Shown piece by piece: positions 2,648 to 31,611 of a stretch of DNA of 58,714 nucleotides. Made by a program: the position numbers and the translations under genes. Under the pieces are notes generated by a model. That model saw only the letters and a list, made by a program, of their open reading frames with translations. It made no database searches and was not told the DNA's origin. The first letter of the stretch is position 1. Each line of letters starts with the position of its first letter. Source of the DNA: Candidatus Woesearchaeota archaeon (GTDB lineage: Archaea > Nanobdellota > Nanobdellia > Pacearchaeales > GW2011-AR1); assembly GCA_964468255.1 (NCBI GenBank), contig CAYXTB010000001.1:1-58714 (forward strand). The letters run 5' to 3'.

Positions 2648-4837
2648 CTATTGGTTCTCCGCCAGCCCCTTCCTCTGCCTTATCTTCCTTATGACATCAA
2701 ACTGCAGTTCTGCAGGCAGTTTCTGGAAGTGCTGGTCCATCAAAGAAGAAACGCCCCTGCCTTCTGTGGCAGACCTTAAGTCATTGCTCCATCCAATCAT
2801 TTCTGCAACAGGAATTTTAGCTTTTATGAAAGTGTCATTGCCTTCCTGATGAACATCAATTAAAATTCCTCTTTTTGAGCCTATCAATCCATTTACTGTT
2901 CCCATAAAATCAACAGGAACTTCAATCAAATGAGTTTGTATGGGCTCTAATATGACTGCGCCGCCTTTCTTTATAGACTCGTGCATTCCTAATCTTATCG
3001 CAGGATAAATCTGAGCAGGCCCCCTATGCATATGGTCTACGTGTAATTTTGCATCATGAAGAATGAATTTTGTCTTCATCAAAGGCTCTTTTGCTAGGGG
3101 ACCTCCGTCAATGACTAACCTCCATCCGTCAATAATAGATTCAATTACTTCTGGCAATAAGACAAGCCCTCTTGTTCTATCCTGAAAAACATTTCCCTTG
3201 TAGATTTCCAAGTACTGCCTCGCTTCTTCGTTGCTGATGCCAAGAGAAGAAAGCTTCTTCCAAACATCTTCTGCTTTCTTTTTCAGGCGCATCTCAGGCA
3301 ATGCCCCAGATTCAATCGCGTCGTAAACTTCTTCTTCCAAAGGCTCAGCGCTTACAAAGAAAATGTTGTGTCCATTAGGAGTTCTGACTTCAACTTCCGG
3401 GCTTGCTTTGGCAATGCTTTCCCTGTAAACAACAATAGGATTTCCTGTTTTAACTTCAAGCCCCTTTTCTGTCTTGATTCTGCCTTCTATAATCTCCAAG
3501 TGCAATTCACCCATTCCAGAAATAAGATTTTCGCCTGTTTCCTCATTGATTTCAATTTTAATGCTTGGGTCTTCTTTTCCTACTTTTCTCAATACTTCAA
3601 TCAGCTTCGGTAAATCAGCAGACCTGACGATTTCTATGCTCTTTGTAATGACTGGCTGGAAAATGTGCCTTATTTCCTCAAACGGCATCTGTTCGTTCAA
3701 TGTAATAGTATCTCCAACGTCAGAATTCAAGCCAGATATTGCCAGAACATTTCCAGCAGGCACAGATTCCATCTGCTCTGGCTTTATGCCGTTATAAACT
3801 AAAACCTGCTGAACCCTGTATTTTTTCTTGAACATGTTGGAATAAACTTCCATTCCATTCGTAATTGTTCCAGAATAAAGCCTGCCGGCAGAAACTTCTT
3901 TTCCTGACTTTGGCTCTATAACAATTTTTGTAATAATAAAAGCCACTTCTCCTTTGCTATTGCAATTCAATAAATCTTGACCGAATTTGCTGTTCAAATC
4001 GCCTCTCCATATTTTAGGAATTCTATATTTTTGGGCCTGAATAGGATTAGGTAAATGTTTTACAGCCATATCTAAAACAACTTCATGCAAGGGGGCATTT
4101 TTCCAAACCCATTTCTTTCTTTCTTCCTCTGGCATTTCATAAATTCTATAAACATCTTTGAATGAAATATTTTTCTTCTTCATGAAAGGAATTGACAAAG
4201 CCCAGTTCTCCCTTGCTGAGCCGAAAGCAACGCTTCCATCATTAACATTGACTTTCCATTTTTCCTTATACTCTGGTTCAGCAATCTGCATAATTTTATT
4301 ATTAAATTCATTTATTAATTTTATAAAGCGTTCTTGCATTTGCTCTGGCCCAAGCTTCAATTCTTTGATTAATCTATCAACTTTATTAATAAATAAGACT
4401 GGCTTTACTCTCTCTCTTAATGCCTGCTTCAAAACAGTTTCTGTTTGTGGCATAATTCCTTCAACTGCACAAACGAGAACGAAAGTTCCATCAATAGCTC
4501 TCATAGCTCTCGTTACATTTCCCCCAAAATCAACATGCCCTGGAGTATCAATTAAATTAATTAAATATTCTTTTCCCAGATATTCGTGAGCCATAGAAAC
4601 ATTTGCAGCATCAACTGTCATTAATCTTTCCTGCTCATCAGCATGCTGCCATGTGGTCATTCCTTCTTCTAAATCTCCTGCTGCTTTTGTTGACATTAAT
4701 CCTGCGGCAGCCAAAAGTACGTCCGTGAAAGCGGTTTTTCCATGGTGAATATGTGCGCTTGTAGCTACATTCCTGATATTTTCCTGCTGATTTGTCAATC
4801 TTTCAATTTTCCTTATGCTTGTTTCTTTTTCTGTCAT
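2648..4837 (-). CDS. fusA: translation elongation factor 2 (aEF-2)
   Basis: 729 aa. It has the GTPase motifs AHIHHGKT, DTPGH and NKVD, an HRGPAQ diphthamide-loop region, and lies downstream of rps12-rps7 as in archaeal str-type operons. Confidence 0.96.
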   Translation of the reverse strand: MTEKETSIRKIERLTNQQENIRNVATSAHIHHGKTAFTDVLLAAAGLMSTKAAGDLEEGMTTWQHADEQERLMTVDAANVSMAHEYLGKEYLINLIDTPGHVDFGGNVTRAMRAIDGTFVLVCAVEGIMPQTETVLKQALRERVKPVLFINKVDRLIKELKLGPEQMQERFIKLINEFNNKIMQIAEPEYKEKWKVNVNDGSVAFGSARENWALSIPFMKKKNISFKDVYRIYEMPEEERKKWVWKNAPLHEVVLDMAVKHLPNPIQAQKYRIPKIWRGDLNSKFGQDLLNCNSKGEVAFIITKIVIEPKSGKEVSAGRLYSGTITNGMEVYSNMFKKKYRVQQVLVYNGIKPEQMESVPAGNVLAISGLNSDVGDTITLNEQMPFEEIRHIFQPVITKSIEIVRSADLPKLIEVLRKVGKEDPSIKIEINEETGENLISGMGELHLEIIEGRIKTEKGLEVKTGNPIVVYRESIAKASPEVEVRTPNGHNIFFVSAEPLEEEVYDAIESGALPEMRLKKKAEDVWKKLSSLGISNEEARQYLEIYKGNVFQDRTRGLVLLPEVIESIIDGWRLVIDGGPLAKEPLMKTKFILHDAKLHVDHMHRGPAQIYPAIRLGMHESIKKGGAVILEPIQTHLIEVPVDFMGTVNGLIGSKRGILIDVHQEGNDTFIKAKIPVAEMIGWSNDLRSATEGRGVSSLMDQHFQKLPAELQFDVIRKIRQRKGLAENQ

Positions 4838-5772: not shown

Positions 5773-5814
5773 TTATCTTGCAGCATCAGCCTGCTTTTCA
5801 GACTCATTTTTCTT
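5772..5814 (-). repeat. displaced duplicate of the rps7 3' end (last 13 codons plus stop)
   Basis: 5772-5814 matches 7086-7128 at 39/43 nt, with a perfect 29-nt core (5780-5808 = 7094-7122). Read on the minus strand it encodes KKNESEKQADAAR-stop, identical to the S7 C-terminus. All 4 mismatches are synonymous third-position changes. Confidence 0.85.
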
Positions 5815-6286
5815 TGTCCTTGTCCATTTTTTCTTTTAATCTATTTTTTAAGTTTTTCAATATATCTTTACCAACACTATTCCAAAAATTAGTTATCTCT
5901 CTTGCCTGTGAAACTGAGATTTTAAATCCTCTATAATTAGCACTGTGTCTTATTGATTTAAATCTTTCAAGAGAATTCAGCTTAACTTTTTGCTCGCTCG
6001 AAATAAAGTCTAAATTTAAGTATGTATCTTTTAACATCTCAATTGAAACTTCATGATTTTGTGGATTGTATCCTTCAATCCACCATAATGCATCTCCCAA
6101 TTGCCTAATAGACTCATAAATCTCTCTGAATATTGTAGTTGCCCCCTTTTCATTCAATTCCATTTCCAAAGCAACTTCTCCTGTATTTTTAGCAGATTCT
6201 ATTAATGATAAAGCCCTTTCTTTGTCAGAGCTTACCTTAAGTAATTGTTTTGATTTAATTAATTGGGAGATTCTATCTTCTTTCAT
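5804..6286 (-). CDS. HEPN-domain protein (toxin-like partner of the upstream MNT)
   Basis: 160 aa and helical. It has a C-terminal SIRHSANYRG block resembling the HEPN R-x-x-x-x-Y/H motif. Its start overlaps the stop of the upstream nucleotidyltransferase gene by 4 nt. Confidence 0.7.
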   Translation of the reverse strand: MKEDRISQLIKSKQLLKVSSDKERALSLIESAKNTGEVALEMELNEKGATTIFREIYESIRQLGDALWWIEGYNPQNHEVSIEMLKDTYLNLDFISSEQKVKLNSLERFKSIRHSANYRGFKISVSQAREITNFWNSVGKDILKNLKNRLKEKMDKDKEK

Positions 6287-6867
6287 GGTTTGACCTCTAA
6301 GAAACCCATTAGTACTATCCCATTAGCTATATTATTAAAAACATGCAGATCAGCGTTTTTTCTATTAAACTCGTGAATTTGTATTTTTTTGCCTATCTGT
6401 TTTTCAAATTCTGAAAGCTCTCTAAATCCAATAGTTTTATATTCTTTTATCTCTTCTCGTTCTATTGCTATATCTATATCAGAATTTGATATATCTTCAC
6501 CCTTTCTAAAGCTCCCAAAGAGAATAATTGCCTTGGGGTTGTTATACATTTTATTTAGAAATTCTACTAATCCGCTTTGATAAATAAAGTTAAGATTGTA
6601 TATTATTTTATTTTTTTTATAAATCCATTGTTCTCTGTTAGCCTTTATTCTCCATATTTTAGTAAGCTTTTCAATTTGAATAAATCCAGCAGATTCCAAT
6701 TGTCCAAGAATGCTTCCAACATTTGCTTTAGCTACTCCGGCTTCCTTTGCGATGTCGCTTAAGCTAAATTCTTTTTCAGGAAATCTATATAGTACTTCCA
6801 GAACTTTTTGTACTCCGGTTTCTATATAGAACTTACGATAATCATTAATACTATGTGGTTTCTTCAT
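6283..6867 (-). CDS. winged-helix DNA-binding domain fused to a minimal nucleotidyltransferase (MNT)
   Basis: 194 aa. The N-terminus is wHTH-like (FSLSDIAKEAGVAKANVGSILGQLESAGFIQ). The NTase motif is ILFGSFRKGEDISNSDIDIAI (G-S-x10-D-x-D). Confidence 0.8.
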   Translation of the reverse strand: MKKPHSINDYRKFYIETGVQKVLEVLYRFPEKEFSLSDIAKEAGVAKANVGSILGQLESAGFIQIEKLTKIWRIKANREQWIYKKNKIIYNLNFIYQSGLVEFLNKMYNNPKAIILFGSFRKGEDISNSDIDIAIEREEIKEYKTIGFRELSEFEKQIGKKIQIHEFNRKNADLHVFNNIANGIVLMGFLEVKP

Positions 6868-7086: not shown

Positions 7087-7722
7087 TTACCTCGCAGCAT
7101 CAGCCTGCTTTTCAGACTCATTCTTTTTTATCATACAATAGCTGTCTCCTCCTCCCTTTGCAGCAGCCATTATTTCATTTGCTAAAGTATCTGCCATCTT
7201 GTTTCTTTTGCCAAAGCTTTTAGCATAAGCCCCCTGTACTATCCACCTGATTGCTAAATTAATTCTTCTTATCGGACTCGTGTCTACAGCTTGAGGATAT
7301 CTTGCCCCTGCCTGTTCAATAACAGTTATCTCATCCCTTGGCGAGCCATTCTCAATTGCATTCACTAATATTTGTACGGGATTTTGCCCTGTTTTTTTCT
7401 CTACAATATCTAGGGCTATAAGTATTGTTTTCATATTTCTGTTGTATTTTCCAGAACTCCATGAAGTAATTATTTTATGTTTCTTTCCAACATGTCCTGG
7501 CACAGCCAATCTATTTGCTAATCTTTCTACAATTGAAGCTTTCAAATAAGCAAGCTTTTCCAACTGCCTGCCATAGGACTTCGCCAAAAGTTTTCCCCTT
7601 AGGTTGATATATGGCCTCAGAGCATTATCTTTAACTTTTACTTCTTCAGTTGAATATTTATCAAATAGTTTGAATTCTTTTTCTATTGTTTGTTCTTGCT
7701 TTATTTGTTCAGGCATTGCCAT
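7087..7722 (-). CDS. rps7: 30S ribosomal protein S7 (uS7)
   Basis: 211 aa. The sequence is archaeal uS7-like, and the gene sits immediately (1 nt) downstream of rps12. Confidence 0.93.
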   Translation of the reverse strand: MAMPEQIKQEQTIEKEFKLFDKYSTEEVKVKDNALRPYINLRGKLLAKSYGRQLEKLAYLKASIVERLANRLAVPGHVGKKHKIITSWSSGKYNRNMKTILIALDIVEKKTGQNPVQILVNAIENGSPRDEITVIEQAGARYPQAVDTSPIRRINLAIRWIVQGAYAKSFGKRNKMADTLANEIMAAAKGGGDSYCMIKKNESEKQADAAR

Positions 7723-9103: not shown

Positions 9104-9415
9104 CTTCTTTTATAATTCTCTTTCTTTGAAGAAGTTTATAAACCTTGTTATCTTTTATGCTGGTTGAGGTGCAGGAATTGGCTTTGCTTTGTACTTGTCA
9201 GCCACTTCAGCTAGTTTTTCCAAGCCTTTTTTTTAACTTCTATATTCTCGCTATAGCAATAAAGTCCACTTAAAGCACCACCTATTAACCAAAGATATTC
9301 ATTTTTTCTACAAGTAAAGCCCCTTTCATTATTAAGCCATCAATAGCATCATAGGATTTTCAGATTATATTTGTCATAGAAAAATTAGCCTAATTTTATA
9401 TTTAAACATTTGTAA

Positions 9416-12400
9416 CTATTTTGCCTTAGCCTTTTTCTTTTCAAGCTTTGGGTTTACCAAAGGTCCAGTAACTTCAACTAACAGGCCAGGAAGCCCAGTT
9501 CCAACAGGAATTGGTTGGTTTAACAAGATATTTTCAATTACAGAGCTTAACTCATCTCTTGCTCCTTGTATTGTCGCATTAATGAATTGCTTGTCAGGAG
9601 TTTCAAAAGTTGCCCTGGCAAGAACGCTTGCTTTATCAGAAATAATCCCCATTCTTGTTACTCCCTTTACAATTCCAGAAGAAGTCATTGCATCTGCTAC
9701 TAACTTCAAATGCCTCTTATCTATATCAAGGCCTTGAGACTCAATTACTTTCTTGATTTCATTTATTATTATCTGTCTTGCTGCTTCTATTCCAAGAACA
9801 TTTGCAACGTCATGTATATCATTTGACAAAATCCTTTCTCTATCAATGCCTTTCACTTCCATTATATCTTTCAAGTTTGAGCCAGACGTCAAAATTACAT
9901 AATCTTTGCCTCTGCTTGCAATAACTACTTGAGTAACTTTCTTTACTCCGGATATTATTGTTTCCTTCATTTTTTCCTTCAGCTTGTAAATTGCTTTAAA
10001 ATCCAAGTCAACAACGTTAACTGTTATTTTTAAGTCATTTCCTTTTACACTGAATCCTTTTTCCTGTAATCTCTCAACTATTCTTTGCGGCCCAATATGA
10101 ACACTCTTTATCGCCTTATTATCAAGCAAAATTTCAATTTTTTTGTTTGCAAAATCTATCTTTATTTCATTTATTATCTCTTTTAGCTTCATTTCTTTGA
10201 TTTTTTCTGCTATTATTTTGGATTCCTTTTCATTATTGTATTCTTTTTCAAGGTAAATTTCCATTTGGGGTGTTGAAGGCTGTTTTCTTGCATCAAGAAT
10301 CTCAATTAGTCTTGGCAATCCTAAAGTTATTTGTACTTGCGCAACTCCAGCATGATGAAATACATTTAATACCATTTGAGTTGAGGCCTCCCCAAAGCTC
10401 TGGGCAGTAATCACTCCCACGCACTCTCCTGCAGGAATTTTATTGTCTTTTAGATGCAGTTTTGAAATATCTTTTCCATCTTCTCCGTAAATAAATTGCA
10501 CCACATTTTCTGACGCATCTCTTACAGTTCCATCATAAGCAACCTTTAAGTCTTGCAAAGCAGAAACTAATCTTCTATACAAATATCCGGACTTTGGAGT
10601 TCTCAAAGCAGTATCCATTAAGGAATCCCTTCCAGTAATGGCTCCAAAGAAGAACTCGCTTGGCTTCAAACCTTTAAAGTAAGATGACTTTATGAATCCA
10701 TGCGCCTCTGCTCCTATATCATCTTTTTTGAAGAATGAAAGCGTCCGGTCATTATATCCAAAATTAATTCTCTTGTTCCATAAAGATTGTTGCCCTACAC
10801 AGCACGCTATTTGAGTTATATTAAGCATACTTCCAGAAGCTTTTGAATTTATCATTTTGCTTACATTTCCATCTGCCGGGAAATACTGCTGAACAACTTT
10901 TCCTATTTCAGTTATGACTTCATTTAATACCTGCAAGATTTTAATTTCCATTGTTTCCTCAAGAGTTTCTCCAGGAAGGTGATTCATTTTTCCTTCCTCA
11001 TATTCTTTTACTAATTCATACGTCTCCTTCTCGGCCTGCTCTAAAATTTCAGATGTTATTTTCTTTACTTTATCAGATACATTTAAGTCTTGAACTGATA
11101 AAGTGTATCCTTTTCTTGACAAATGAAGGGCCCCAAGAATAAATGCTCTATTTATTGATTCAACTGTTGCCTCTCTCCCAAATTCTTTATCAATTATCTT
11201 TATCATCTCTCCTTCTTCTGCGCCGAATGAATTACTTGCAGTTATTTCATTAGGAATCCTTATGCTCGAGCCTTTTGGAATAATTTGGGCAAAAACTTCT
11301 CTTCCATCAATTTCTTTGCTTTTAATAGAATTAATAACTCCTGATGCATACAAAAGCTGGTCAGCCTCCATTTTGACTATCTTCTCTTTTCCTAAAATAT
11401 AAGCTCCAGTGATAGAATCAGCTATTGTGCCGACAAGATTTATATTATTTTTAGAAGAAATAATATTCTGATTTACATTTAGCAATATTTTCGCTTCTGC
11501 TTTTGCCTCTTCTGTCTGTGGGCTGTGAATATTCATGGCGTCTCCGTCATAATCAGCATTATAAGGGAAGGCAGCTGCAGGATGAAGCCTAAATGTCCTA
11601 TGAGGTAAAACCCTTGTATAATGAGTCATAAGGCTTTGCTTATGCAGGCTCGGATGTCTATTGAAAAGCACAATATCGTCATCTCTTAAATGCCTCTCAA
11701 CTTTATATCCAGGCCGTAACTCATTGCAAAGCTCTTCTTTCAATTCCTCTGTCACCCTTTTTCTCTTCCCATCAGGTCTTATAACATAATTAGCCCCAGG
11801 ATATTTTTCTCCCTGCTTGATAAGAAATTTCATTTCATCTATGTTCAATGAAGTAACAGTCTCGGCAACTGTAATTATCTTTGCAACTTCAAATGGAACT
11901 CCAACTTCATTTATCTTAATAAAAGGGTCAGGAGAAATGACTGTTCTTGCAGAATAATTAACTCTCTTTCCAGCAAGATTATGCCTAATCCTGCCTTCTT
12001 TGCCTTTTATTCTCTCTGTAATTGTTTTTAATGGCTGCCCAGACCTATGTCTTGCAGGAGGAATTCTTGAAATATTATTGTCAAAAAATGTTGTTATATG
12101 GTATTGCAATAAATCCCACAAGTCTTCTATGATTACCTCTGGAGCTCCTGCATTCAAGTTCTCCCATAGTCTTTGATTTGATCTTATAATGTCAGAAAGC
12201 TTATGAGTTAAATCGTCTTCACTTCTCTCTCCAGTATCTAAGGTAATTGAAGGCCTTACGGTTACAGAAGGTACAAGAAGCAGGGATAAGACAGCCCATT
12301 CAGGTCTGCACGTTTTAGGATTAACTCCTATTTTTTTCAATTCGTCATCTGGAATCAAAACAAGCCTGTCCCTTGCGTCAATCGAATTCAATCTTTTTTT

Positions 12401-12859
12401 TCCAAGCATAAATGTGCTGGGCTTCTCAAGTTTTACTCTTTCTATATTTTCAGAGCAATGAGGGCATCTCTTTGCGTCTCTTGCCTTCTTTGCTCTTAAT
12501 ACAGGATTTAATTCTTTCTGCTTTTCATCACTTAAAGTCAGTTTTCCGCATTTTGGGCAGAAACTTCTCAAGCATAATTCAATTAGAGGAATATATTTTA
12601 TGTGCAAAACCGGCCTTGCAAGCTCAATAGAGCCAGAATGTCCAGGGCATTCCTTAACTCTTTTTCCGCAAGTTCTGCATCTAACTCCAGGATCAATTGC
12701 TCCAAGCCTTAAATCCATCAATCCTCCATCAACAGGAAATCCATCAATATCATAAAGTTCAGGAGTTACAATTTTTGCCGTGCTAAGCTTCTTAATTTTC
12801 TCCGGGCTAAGCAGGGAAAATCTTAATGCCTTTACCTGTTTTCTGAAATGAACTTCCAT
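9416..12859 (-). CDS. rpoA: DNA-directed RNA polymerase subunit A, with A' and A'' parts fused in one ORF
   Basis: One uninterrupted 1147-aa ORF. A'-type motifs are the zinc ribbon CRTCGKRVKECPGH, RHPSLH, and the catalytic loop NADYDGDAMN at 11531-11560. A''-type trigger-loop motifs are GEASTQMVLNVFHHAGVA and TLGLPRLIEI. Confidence 0.95.
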   Translation of the reverse strand: MEVHFRKQVKALRFSLLSPEKIKKLSTAKIVTPELYDIDGFPVDGGLMDLRLGAIDPGVRCRTCGKRVKECPGHSGSIELARPVLHIKYIPLIELCLRSFCPKCGKLTLSDEKQKELNPVLRAKKARDAKRCPHCSENIERVKLEKPSTFMLGKKRLNSIDARDRLVLIPDDELKKIGVNPKTCRPEWAVLSLLLVPSVTVRPSITLDTGERSEDDLTHKLSDIIRSNQRLWENLNAGAPEVIIEDLWDLLQYHITTFFDNNISRIPPARHRSGQPLKTITERIKGKEGRIRHNLAGKRVNYSARTVISPDPFIKINEVGVPFEVAKIITVAETVTSLNIDEMKFLIKQGEKYPGANYVIRPDGKRKRVTEELKEELCNELRPGYKVERHLRDDDIVLFNRHPSLHKQSLMTHYTRVLPHRTFRLHPAAAFPYNADYDGDAMNIHSPQTEEAKAEAKILLNVNQNIISSKNNINLVGTIADSITGAYILGKEKIVKMEADQLLYASGVINSIKSKEIDGREVFAQIIPKGSSIRIPNEITASNSFGAEEGEMIKIIDKEFGREATVESINRAFILGALHLSRKGYTLSVQDLNVSDKVKKITSEILEQAEKETYELVKEYEEGKMNHLPGETLEETMEIKILQVLNEVITEIGKVVQQYFPADGNVSKMINSKASGSMLNITQIACCVGQQSLWNKRINFGYNDRTLSFFKKDDIGAEAHGFIKSSYFKGLKPSEFFFGAITGRDSLMDTALRTPKSGYLYRRLVSALQDLKVAYDGTVRDASENVVQFIYGEDGKDISKLHLKDNKIPAGECVGVITAQSFGEASTQMVLNVFHHAGVAQVQITLGLPRLIEILDARKQPSTPQMEIYLEKEYNNEKESKIIAEKIKEMKLKEIINEIKIDFANKKIEILLDNKAIKSVHIGPQRIVERLQEKGFSVKGNDLKITVNVVDLDFKAIYKLKEKMKETIISGVKKVTQVVIASRGKDYVILTSGSNLKDIMEVKGIDRERILSNDIHDVANVLGIEAARQIIINEIKKVIESQGLDIDKRHLKLVADAMTSSGIVKGVTRMGIISDKASVLARATFETPDKQFINATIQGARDELSSVIENILLNQPIPVGTGLPGLLVEVTGPLVNPKLEKKKAKAK

Positions 12860-12861
12860 TT

Positions 12862-12975
12862 TTAATTATTTTCTATCTTTGGTGTTAAAAGACTTTCAAT
12901 AGTATTTATTACGATAGATCGTCTTTCATCTTTTCCATGCAATTTTTTTATTAATTCATCAATATCTATTTTCAT
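12862..12975 (-). CDS. small ORF (37 aa) embedded between rpoB and rpoA
   Basis: Hand translation gives MKIDIDELIKKLHGKDERRSIVINTIESLLTPKIENN-stop. Its ATG is 1 nt after the stop of ORF 12977-13303, and its stop is 2 nt before the rpoA ATG. It falls below the ORF-track length cutoff. Confidence 0.4.
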   Translation of the reverse strand: MKIDIDELIKKLHGKDERRSIVINTIESLLTPKIENN

Positions 12976-12976
12976 G

Positions 12977-13303
12977 TTATGCTCTCCTCACAACAAACAT
13001 AGGATGATTGACTATTTCATCAATTGTTCCATATAAAATAACTCTTTTTCCAAAAACATCAATAATTCCTCCCAAACATCTGAATCTCTGATGTACTCCA
13101 TAATTTTCTACTAATCTCTTTTTAAGTTCTTCTTGGCTATTATCATGATCAAGATAACTATATGTGTCTTCCGAACCTTCTCCTACAGCTATATTAGATT
13201 GACCAAATCTTTTTCTATACGTAGTTTCATTAACTACAACAGCGTTCCACGCTTTTTCTGCCCTGCTTGCTAAAGTTTTAGCATCTATATTTTCTTTTGT
13301 CAT
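12977..13303 (-). CDS. hypothetical protein (108 aa) embedded between rpoB and rpoA
   Basis: The ATG at 13303 lies 2 nt after the rpoB stop codon (13306-13308). The gene is on the same strand and tightly packed. No recognisable motifs. Confidence 0.65.
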   Translation of the reverse strand: MTKENIDAKTLASRAEKAWNAVVVNETTYRKRFGQSNIAVGEGSEDTYSYLDHDNSQEELKKRLVENYGVHQRFRCLGGIIDVFGKRVILYGTIDEIVNHPMFVVRRA

Positions 13304-16559: not shown

Positions 16560-16766
16560 TTAAGCTACAATCCTGAAATAAACATTTATTTTGTCTTCGT
16601 CTTTTCTTTCAATCTTAACTATATCTCCCTGCTCGTATCCTTCCGGAATTACAGGATCATCTTTCTTTATTTTTGGCAATTGTGAGATAGAAATGTTATA
16701 CTTTTCCAGTAACTGCTTCGCCTCATTTAGCTTCAGTTTGGTATGTTTTGGCTGTAGGATATGCAT
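16560..16766 (-). CDS. rpoH: DNA-directed RNA polymerase subunit H (Rpb5 C-terminal homologue)
   Basis: 68 aa. The motifs HILQPKHTKL, ISQLPKI, DPV and GDIVKIER are typical of RpoH. The gene lies 5 nt upstream of rpoB. Confidence 0.9.
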   Translation of the reverse strand: MHILQPKHTKLKLNEAKQLLEKYNISISQLPKIKKDDPVIPEGYEQGDIVKIERKDEDKINVYFRIVA

Positions 16767-29209: not shown

Positions 29210-29293
29210 GCGGGGATGCCGGAGCGGTCAAACGGGCGACGTTAAGGCCGTCGTAGCTTAGTGCTTGCGAAGGTTCGAATCCTTCTCCCCGCA
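29210..29293 (+). tRNA. class II tRNA (long variable arm), tRNA-Leu; anticodon reads AAG by canonical numbering
   Basis: Acceptor GCGGGGA/TCCCCGC, T arm GAAGG-TTCGAAT-CCTTC, anticodon stem CGACG/CGTCG with loop TTAAGGC, a 17-nt variable arm, and discriminator A. No encoded CCA. Confidence 0.8.
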
Positions 29294-31508: not shown

Positions 31509-31611
31509 GCGCGATTAGTTAAATGGCAGAATAGCTGGTTTCCAAAATATAATGACTAATAGGCTATATTGAAACAACCAGCGGACACGGGTTCGATTCC
31601 CGTATCGCGCA
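31509..31611 (+). tRNA. intron-containing tRNA, most likely tRNA-Gly (UCC); Trp (CCA) is a less likely alternative
   Basis: Acceptor GCGCGAT/ATCGCGC, D arm GTTA-AATGGCA-GAAT with A14, G18G19 and A21, and T arm ACGGG-TTCGATT-CCCGT. The anticodon stem GCTGG/CCAGC encloses 39 nt, that is a 7-nt loop TTTCCAA plus a ~32-nt intron at about 37/38. Discriminator A. Confidence 0.75.

Follow-up and report, generated by a model that had tools for sequence, protein, structure and literature searches.

Between rpoB and rpoA, the genes for the two catalytic subunits of RNA polymerase (RNAP), two small open reading frames (ORFs) of 108 and 37 amino acids (aa), here called ORF108 and ORF37, lie in a 58,714-nt contig of low GC content (33.9%) from a Pacearchaeota/Nanoarchaeota (DPANN) archaeon. 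We refer to the whole contig as the window. Our analysis suggests that ORF108 is an accessory gene of DUF5678-like type, intact, dispensable, and rapidly evolving, which occupies a cargo slot in the RNAP operon, and that ORF37 is the remnant of a tandem paralogue; we put the probability of this combined reading at roughly 0.6. Because the family is patchily distributed among close relatives, we regard ORF108 as dispensable cargo hitchhiking in the operon rather than as a core RNAP subunit. A preliminary description of the locus had recognised no family for either protein and had proposed lineage-specific RNAP accessory subunits or a small toxin-antitoxin (TA) cassette. Instead, a single family, which forms a divergent branch of DUF5678, appears to include both proteins, with ORF37 being just a truncated paralogue.

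ORF108 and the slot family

Our comparison set comprised 80 GTDB species-representative and 80 metagenome loci around the N-terminus of RpoA, from which every rpoB-rpoA junction was extracted. Fetched loci are numbered L001 to L165, and a suffix gives the length of an ORF in aa (for example, L003_86). Neither ORF108 nor ORF37 received an annotation from Pfam, NCBIfam, PADLOC or a sequence search of the PDB, and the sole Pfam line (“Beta defensin 50,” 19.6 bits) was below the cut-off and was rejected as implausible. Likewise, a word-indexed search of 5.8 billion proteins yielded nothing beyond the query. When 1.84 billion cluster representatives were scanned exhaustively with HMMER, a single relative of ORF108 was found, P0122, which is 107 aa long and 56% identical (E = 6e-28). 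P0122 is known from one contig (L081) that carries the 3′ end of rpoB, P0122, and the 5′ end of rpoA. There, the stop codon of P0122 overlaps the rpoA ATG, and an equivalent of ORF37 is absent.

Comparing ORF108 with P0122, we obtained a proportion of non-synonymous differences (pN) of 0.26, a proportion of synonymous differences (pS) of 0.57, and a ratio of non-synonymous to synonymous substitution rates (dN/dS) of ~0.30, vs. ratios of 0.07 and 0.04 for the rpoB and rpoA segments of the window and L081 (86-87% aa identity), although all of these ratios are rough because dS is saturated (>1). The values point to a gene that is constrained, yet evolves far faster than its neighbors rpoB and rpoA.

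The AlphaFold2 model of ORF108, based on a 7-sequence alignment, was compact, with a predicted local distance difference test score (pLDDT) of 84.3 and a predicted template-modeling score (pTM) of 0.77. The predicted fold runs alpha-alpha-beta-beta-alpha-beta-beta-beta-alpha, with the first strand pair forming a beta-hairpin and the last helix being short. A second model, that of the 86-aa B-type protein L003_86 (pLDDT 86.8), had the same core minus an 18-residue insertion, which is found in ORF108 and P0122 only and is predicted to form two extra strands. When we compared both models with the PDB and that of ORF108 with BFVD using Foldseek, nothing better than E = 0.03 or a template-modeling score of ~0.4 was found, and the PDB comparison revealed no likeness to RNAP subunits or factors of any kind. 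Searching PDB sequences with a profile gave just weak, biologically meaningless matches to TauD (E = 0.011). Still, the homologue in the same slot, the excess of pS over pN, the confident AlphaFold model, and membership in a family all argue that ORF108 is a real, intact protein-coding gene.

This family was recovered from the slot itself. L018_99, L003_86, L027_99, L082_113, L082_84, L097_85, L107_97, and L009_74 are slot ORFs that align with ORF108 over the full length, and the family includes at least nine small proteins of ~85-113 aa that share the motif YG..YiAv.e..GViDsD.d..eL.kRl....vii.TId.lLn in an alignment of 7-9 members. ORF108 and L018_99 are 26.5% identical over 98 aa. A hidden Markov model (HMM) of the family that was built without ORF108, P0122, and ORF37 matched ORF108 at E = 3.1e-5, ORF37 at E = 0.01, and P0122 at E = 0.012, and these three were its best non-training matches among 23,840 six-frame ORFs. 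Searching the 5.8 billion proteins with a profile yielded seven proteins, all of them slot genes, including P0122 and P0126, whose contexts were checked. Across the window and 165 loci, 18 of 18 family matches lay inside the slot, on the same strand between rpoB and rpoA.

The family consensus matched the Pfam family DUF5678 (PF18929), an uncharacterized domain of archaea and bacteria, at 28.6 bits (E = 1.3e-6; gathering score 23.2 bits). A consensus without ORF108 and P0122 scored 25.2 bits, five single members scored a sub-threshold 15.2-21.7 bits, and P0126 has a precomputed PF18929 hit. The match covers positions 1-36 of the 49-position model. Shared features are a core of beta-hairpin, helix, and strand and a motif, y.A...g.vvd.d.d..eL, that is common to the slot family. 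By contrast, two additional helices extend the slot family at its N-terminus, and ORF108 and P0122 also carry the 18-residue insertion. Judging by these scores, the slot family is a divergent branch of DUF5678. We found no relevant paper on DUF5678, for which no function or structure is known, and literature searches on the RNAP gene fusion of Pacearchaeota, a retropepsin-antitoxin link, and operon insertions in DPANN also returned nothing relevant.

A canonical DUF5678 gene was observed in one comparison locus (L035:10160-10402, 80 aa, 33.6 bits), where it lies outside the slot and overlaps by 4 nt a downstream 143-aa gene (module 10160-10830) with a DTGS motif and weak matches (~17 bits) to retropepsin-like aspartyl proteases. 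No further copies were found among the comparison loci by jackhmmer from this protein, and, in contrast to it, the slot members lack a protease-like partner. Although a single instance, this pair hints that DUF5678 proteins may serve as small partner or antitoxin-like modules. Our best guess is that proteins of the ORF108 type act not as enzymes but as small modules with a protein-binding or regulatory (antitoxin-like) role.

The strict placement of the family in the slot could also mean that ORF108, alone or together with ORF37, encodes an accessory or regulatory factor of RNAP specific to the clade. Such a factor would be made together with the catalytic subunits and bind to RNAP, where it might help in assembly, modulate the enzyme, or guard it against viral inhibitors. 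Every detectable family member is encoded between rpoB and rpoA, the genes appear translationally coupled to those of both catalytic subunits, purifying selection is detectable, and the predicted domain is confident, compact, and without a known homologue. However, only ~8 of 48 close relatives had the family, with empty slots scattered among them, and in most close relatives rpoB and rpoA abut cleanly. In a neighbor-joining tree of the RpoB C-terminus and RpoA N-terminus (relatives at ≥78% identity), the lineages that carry it (the window, L009, L082, L003, L081, L018, and L107) were scattered, and their tree neighbors had empty slots or unrelated cargo. ORF108 and P0122 also diverged to 56% identity over the same divergence that left RNAP at 86-87%, copies with large in-frame deletions persist in two lineages (ORF37 in the window and L009_74), charge and isoelectric point (pI) are not conserved across members (pI 5.1-9.3), and the slot also houses 55 other unrelated clusters, TA modules included. 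We therefore consider an RNAP factor unlikely. The small crenarchaeal RNAP subunits Rpo8 and Rpo13 offer a useful comparison, as they co-purify with RNAP and are conserved throughout their own clades. Like them, the proteins of the ORF108 family are small and confined to one archaeal lineage, and they are additionally encoded with RNAP genes, but the family is missing from most close relatives.

Origin and fate of ORF37

ORF37 aligned to the C-terminal 35-39 residues of L003_86 and L082_84 with 51-54% identity, and tblastn against L003 gave 46% over 39 aa (E = 1.4e-5). Both of these genes lie directly upstream of rpoA in their own genomes. Relative to the 84- to 86-aa B-type members, ORF37 retains the final helix, the final strand, and the tail but lacks ~45-49 residues corresponding to the N-terminal helices and beta-hairpin. 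These alignments identify ORF37 as a truncated paralogue of the slot family, the remnant of an rpoA-proximal tandem copy. Tandem members also occur in L082, where a 113-aa protein is followed by one of 84 aa, as ORF108 is followed by ORF37. The remnant may have arisen by an internal in-frame deletion or by truncation of the 5′ end, with a previously out-of-frame ATG now serving as the start. In a comparison made by hand, without an alignment tool, the first 22 nt of ORF37 matched the 5′ end of L003_86 at 18 positions (MKIDIDE vs. MKININE); because the sequence is A-rich, we do not choose between the two origins. A separate internal in-frame deletion of ~40 codons, independent of that in ORF37, distinguishes L009_74 from L082_113. 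The family thus appears to be decaying in at least two lineages while its start and stop junctions stay intact, and ORF37 itself is probably a remnant in decay, through whose open frame translation still passes into rpoA.

We also considered whether ORF108 and ORF37 form a two-gene TA or addiction cassette sheltered in an essential operon. The genes are small and tightly coupled, in L046 and L155-158 the slot houses genuine MntA/HepT pairs (HepT-like 73 bits, NTP_transf_2 69 bits), an MNT/HEPN-like pair lies between S7 and EF-2 in the window, and the overlap of the canonical DUF5678 gene with the protease-like gene in L035 is a TA-like layout. However, unlike these type VII pairs, ORF108 and ORF37 show no nucleotidyltransferase or HEPN similarity and are paralogues of each other rather than toxin and antitoxin. 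ORF37 is a fragment without the fold core, and the closest homologue, in L081, is of the ORF108 type alone. No toxin or antitoxin domain was found with PADLOC, Pfam, or NCBIfam, ORF108 had no match in phages by tblastn, and the canonical L035 protein had none in plasmids (ORF108 itself was not searched against plasmids). Because of the paralogy and the solitary homologue in L081, a TA pair is essentially excluded, and we regard the cassette as highly improbable. The broader suggestion that selfish or accessory genes shelter in this operon fared better, given the MntA/HepT pairs and nucleotidyltransferases in the slot elsewhere and the MNT/HEPN-like pair in the window, but it does not extend to ORF108 and ORF37 as a TA module.

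The rpoB-rpoA slot across Pacearchaeales

The rpoB and rpoA genes had been expected to be contiguous. In the GTDB species representatives, rpoB abuts rpoA in 49 of 79 cases (gap −8 to +54 nt), and the remaining 30 carry 92-1262 bp between them. After dereplication of the 160 junctions to 134 (135 with the window), 63 had a gap of ≤10 nt, 7 a gap of 11-60 nt, and 64 a gap of >60 nt (inserts of 70-1262 bp), so that contiguity holds in about half of the order and fails in a similar share. The layout of two genes between rpoB and rpoA was recovered in L082, whereas the 49 representatives above have no insert. Thus, rpoB and rpoA are adjacent in many relatives, yet the two ORFs do have conserved homologues.

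The inserts consist almost entirely of same-strand ORFs, with a median coding coverage of 99%. We counted 81 unique cargo ORFs of 25-156 aa, which phmmer grouped into 56 clusters, 45 of them singletons, and the DUF5678-like family was the largest. Cargo with recognizable domains included the MntA/HepT pair (L046, L155-158), lone nucleotidyltransferases (L044, L055), and a tRNA-binding-domain protein (L043). In the 65 occupied slots (64 plus the window), the first cargo ATG was ≤4 nt from the rpoB stop in 55, and the last cargo stop was ≤4 nt from, or overlapped, the rpoA ATG in 50. The TAA-n-ATG or ATGA junctions of empty sites, which are clean, are the same as those of occupied ones. The co-transcription and translational coupling that had been proposed from spacing in the window are supported by this geometry, which recurs in most occupied slots. 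The tight packing in the window also exceeds chance, with a homologue of ORF108 in the same slot, matches of ORF37 to same-slot C-termini in two genomes, and a motif resembling a Shine-Dalgarno (SD) sequence before ORF37.

Two further kinds of cargo recur in the slot. Cys-rich slot proteins of 58-106 aa with 4-6 Cys (e.g., CP-x5-6-C-x10-14-C-x6-8-C) form several small phmmer clusters without Pfam hits, occur in L029, L032/L127, L054, L067, L118, L122, L134/L136, L145, L146, L151, and L135, and could be metal-binding. Slot proteins of ~80-90 aa with two predicted hydrophobic helices and the pattern ILNILFWI..IG..L.WRIFG..P.DL were seen at L034:5689-5964, L113:2506-2742, L135:4450-4704, and L151:4492-4761. 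Membrane proteins encoded within an RNAP operon were unexpected.

ORF108 and ORF37 would have no promoter of their own and would be transcribed with the RNAP operon. We found no excess of oligo-T between rpoB and rpoA, as the insert contains one T5 run at a density comparable to rpoB, and an internal terminator or promoter was rejected as a candidate, with only a 5-bp hairpin lacking a T tail besides that run. Translation would proceed by coupling, as suggested by the spacing of 1 or 2 nt between stop and ATG and by the SD motif inside the 3′ end of ORF108. Among the 135 junctions, we found an SD-like 4-mer ahead of rpoA in 2 of the 63 empty slots (3%), 29 of 51 coupled occupied slots (57%), and 5 of 21 uncoupled ones (24%). 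Because 29 of the 51 coupled occupied slots have such a motif and only 2 of the 63 empty ones do, cargo 3′ ends often supply the SD of rpoA, and the “..GG..” at the C-terminus of many cargo proteins stems from a GGAGG motif for rpoA that lies within their final codons. In the window, rpoA has no SD-like 4-mer upstream. There has probably been selection to keep the frame open and translated as far as the ATG of rpoA in this genome, as rpoA lacks an SD of its own, and a non-functional remnant such as ORF37 may persist as an ORF because the frame into rpoA would have to stay translated.

A rival explanation is that slot ORFs, possibly including ORF108, stay open mainly for read-through to rpoA and that their products have little or no function of their own, the slot being filled with spacer ORFs or acting as a nursery for new small proteins. 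The high coding coverage of inserts, the predominance of singleton clusters (45/56), the junctions retained by truncated derivatives, and the enrichment of SD-like motifs in cargo 3′ ends are consistent with this, as is a very low GC content at third codon positions (ORF108 0.165 and ORF37 0.105, vs. 0.28-0.30 in rpoA and rpoB; total GC of ORF37 0.22). However, the ORF108 family is conserved at the amino acid level with pN below pS, has confident compact fold predictions, and is linked to an established family of domains; some of the cargo also carries clear domains; and some junctions have neither coupling nor an SD-like motif. This explanation suits ORF37 and many singleton cargo ORFs, but it suits ORF108 poorly, and as a general account we find it rather unlikely.

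Returning to ORF108 as dispensable cargo, the low third-position GC of ORF108 and ORF37 relative to the flanking genes also fits this reading. Gain, replacement, and clean loss would probably rely on the highly conserved flanking genes rpoB and rpoA as sites of homologous recombination or, alternatively, on deletion at the repeated TAA-n-ATG junctions. No integrase, insertion sequence (IS) element, or attachment (att) site was seen in the slot, only the TAA-n-ATG microhomology inherent to coupled genes. More tentatively, the junction could be a dedicated coupled cargo slot in which inserts are held open by selection, a shelter or nursery for small proteins, some of which (e.g., the family of ORF108) may have been recruited as RNAP-interacting modulators; we think this doubtful.

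Several results weigh against reading ORF108 as accessory DUF5678-like cargo. The saturation of dS leaves the dN/dS values rough. The link to DUF5678 is transitive, as ORF108 and P0122 have no PF18929 match at E ≤ 1 and ORF37 has none either. The family resides strictly in the slot down to 74% RpoA N-terminal identity (L027), which could mean a functional link to RNAP. With no mobile-element signatures, the recombination mechanism is pure inference. At 16 of the 135 junctions there is neither tight coupling nor an SD-like motif; because of these, coupling cannot be obligatory, rpoA is apparently translatable without coupling or an SD, and the idea of a coupling bridge is weakly supported. Finally, other junctions of the same super-operon vary as well (56% of rpoA-NusA, 53% of NusA-S12, and 11% of rpoH-rpoB junctions exceed 90 nt), and we dropped the claim that the rpoB-rpoA slot is uniquely variable.

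Operon context and wider meaning

Read directly from the minus strand, the coordinates, spacing, and translations of the two ORFs were exactly as in the preliminary description, and Pfam confirmed rpoH, rpoB, and rpoA (Table 1). Gene order on this strand is rpoH, rpoB, ORF108, ORF37, rpoA, a 312-nt gap, a NusA-like KH protein, S12, and S7. The junctions read rpoB TAA-AC-ATG ORF108, TAA-C-ATG ORF37, and TAA-AA-ATG rpoA, which gives spacers of 2, 1, and 2 nt.

Table 1. Positions of the slot genes and other features in the window
Feature	Position	Strand	Remarks
rpoH (Rpo5/Rpb5 C-terminal domain)	16560-16766	-	Pfam RNA_pol_Rpb5_C 68.5 bits; opens the operon; separated from rpoB by 5 nt
rpoB, unsplit, 1082 aa	13306-16554	-	Pfam Rpb2 domains 1-7; TAA 13308-13306 is the upstream slot wall
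ORF108	12977-13303	-	ATG 13303, TAA 12979-12977; reads as an intact, fast-evolving DUF5678-like slot gene
GAGGAG, SD-like motif for ORF37	12984-12989	-	Within the last ORF108 codons (VVRRA); 8 nt before ATG 12975
ORF37	12862-12975	-	ATG 12975, TAA 12864-12862; reads as a truncated paralogue
rpoA, 1147 aa, A′ and A′′ fused	9416-12859	-	Pfam Rpb1 domains 1-5; ATG 12859 is the downstream slot wall
Gap after rpoA	9104-9415		312 nt, apparently non-coding
Orphan ORF, 117 aa	8275-8628	+	Between the NusA-KH gene and S12; no Pfam hit
S7	7087-7722	-	str operon
Two-gene insert between S7 and EF-2	5804-6867	-	Genes overlap by 4 nt
First insert gene, 194 aa	6283-6867	-	PADLOC PDC-M05 A 68.8 bits; NTP_transf_2
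Second insert gene, 160 aa	5804-6286	-	PDC-M05 B 19.7 bits; R-x5-H motif
EF-2	2648-4837		str operon
Subtilase, 821 aa	16950-19415	-	Peptidase_S8; poly-Gly tract
ORF, 1532 aa	20348-24946	-	No Pfam hit
tRNA-Leu	29210-29293		Called by ARAGORN
tRNA, 103 nt	31509-31611		Called by Rfam

In archaea, rpoA is usually split into genes for A′ and A′′. All of the 120 best RpoA homologues were ~1096-1156 aa long, and because of this we take the fusion of A′ and A′′ to be a trait of the lineage. The top homologues were 75-82% identical, and all were annotated as metagenome-assembled genomes of Pacearchaeota, Nanoarchaeota, or Woesearchaeota. L30e is often found after rpoA in archaeal operons; in the window, rpoA is followed by the apparently non-coding gap. 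Immediately 5′ of the RNAP operon are the gene for the subtilase, which appears to be secreted or anchored, and that for the 1532-aa protein. The 103-nt tRNA, which probably contains an intron, is missed by ARAGORN, and the tRNA-Leu is absent from the Rfam gathering-threshold list.

A second occupied junction was observed in the str operon of the window, between S7 and the gene for elongation factor 2 (EF-2). Its first insert gene combines a winged helix-turn-helix with an MntA-like nucleotidyltransferase and matches the PADLOC candidate system PDC-M05. By sequence similarity, the pair is probably a TA or defense pair of the MNT/HEPN type, sheltered in another essential operon junction.

Variable islets and integration hotspots between conserved core genes, such as the defense or TA hotspots of bacterial genomes, are already known, as are TA modules that hitchhike in operons. 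The rpoB-rpoA slot resembles such hotspots in its conserved flanks, in its variable content, which includes MntA/HepT and nucleotidyltransferases, and in its patchy occupancy among close relatives. By contrast, it lies within an essential and apparently co-translated RNAP operon, between two catalytic subunit genes, and its tiny same-strand cargo is presumably promoterless, is joined by stop-1/2 nt-ATG spacing, and shows no integrase, att site, or IS element. What is new here is a same-strand, translationally coupled micro-gene slot between the catalytic RNAP genes, filled in about half of an archaeal order with dozens of unrelated families.

The supposedly invariant archaeal rpoB-rpoA junction is therefore among the most variable core-operon spots in a DPANN order, and dozens of unrelated micro-genes appear to ride on RNAP expression there. 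DUF5678-like proteins gain their first reproducible genomic context, and remnants of the ORF37 type should not be annotated as independent protein families. The slot also offers natural examples of accessory, selfish, or new genes persisting within the essential operons of extremely reduced genomes, and its ~80 small proteins form a candidate set for RNAP binding or for TA and defense activity.

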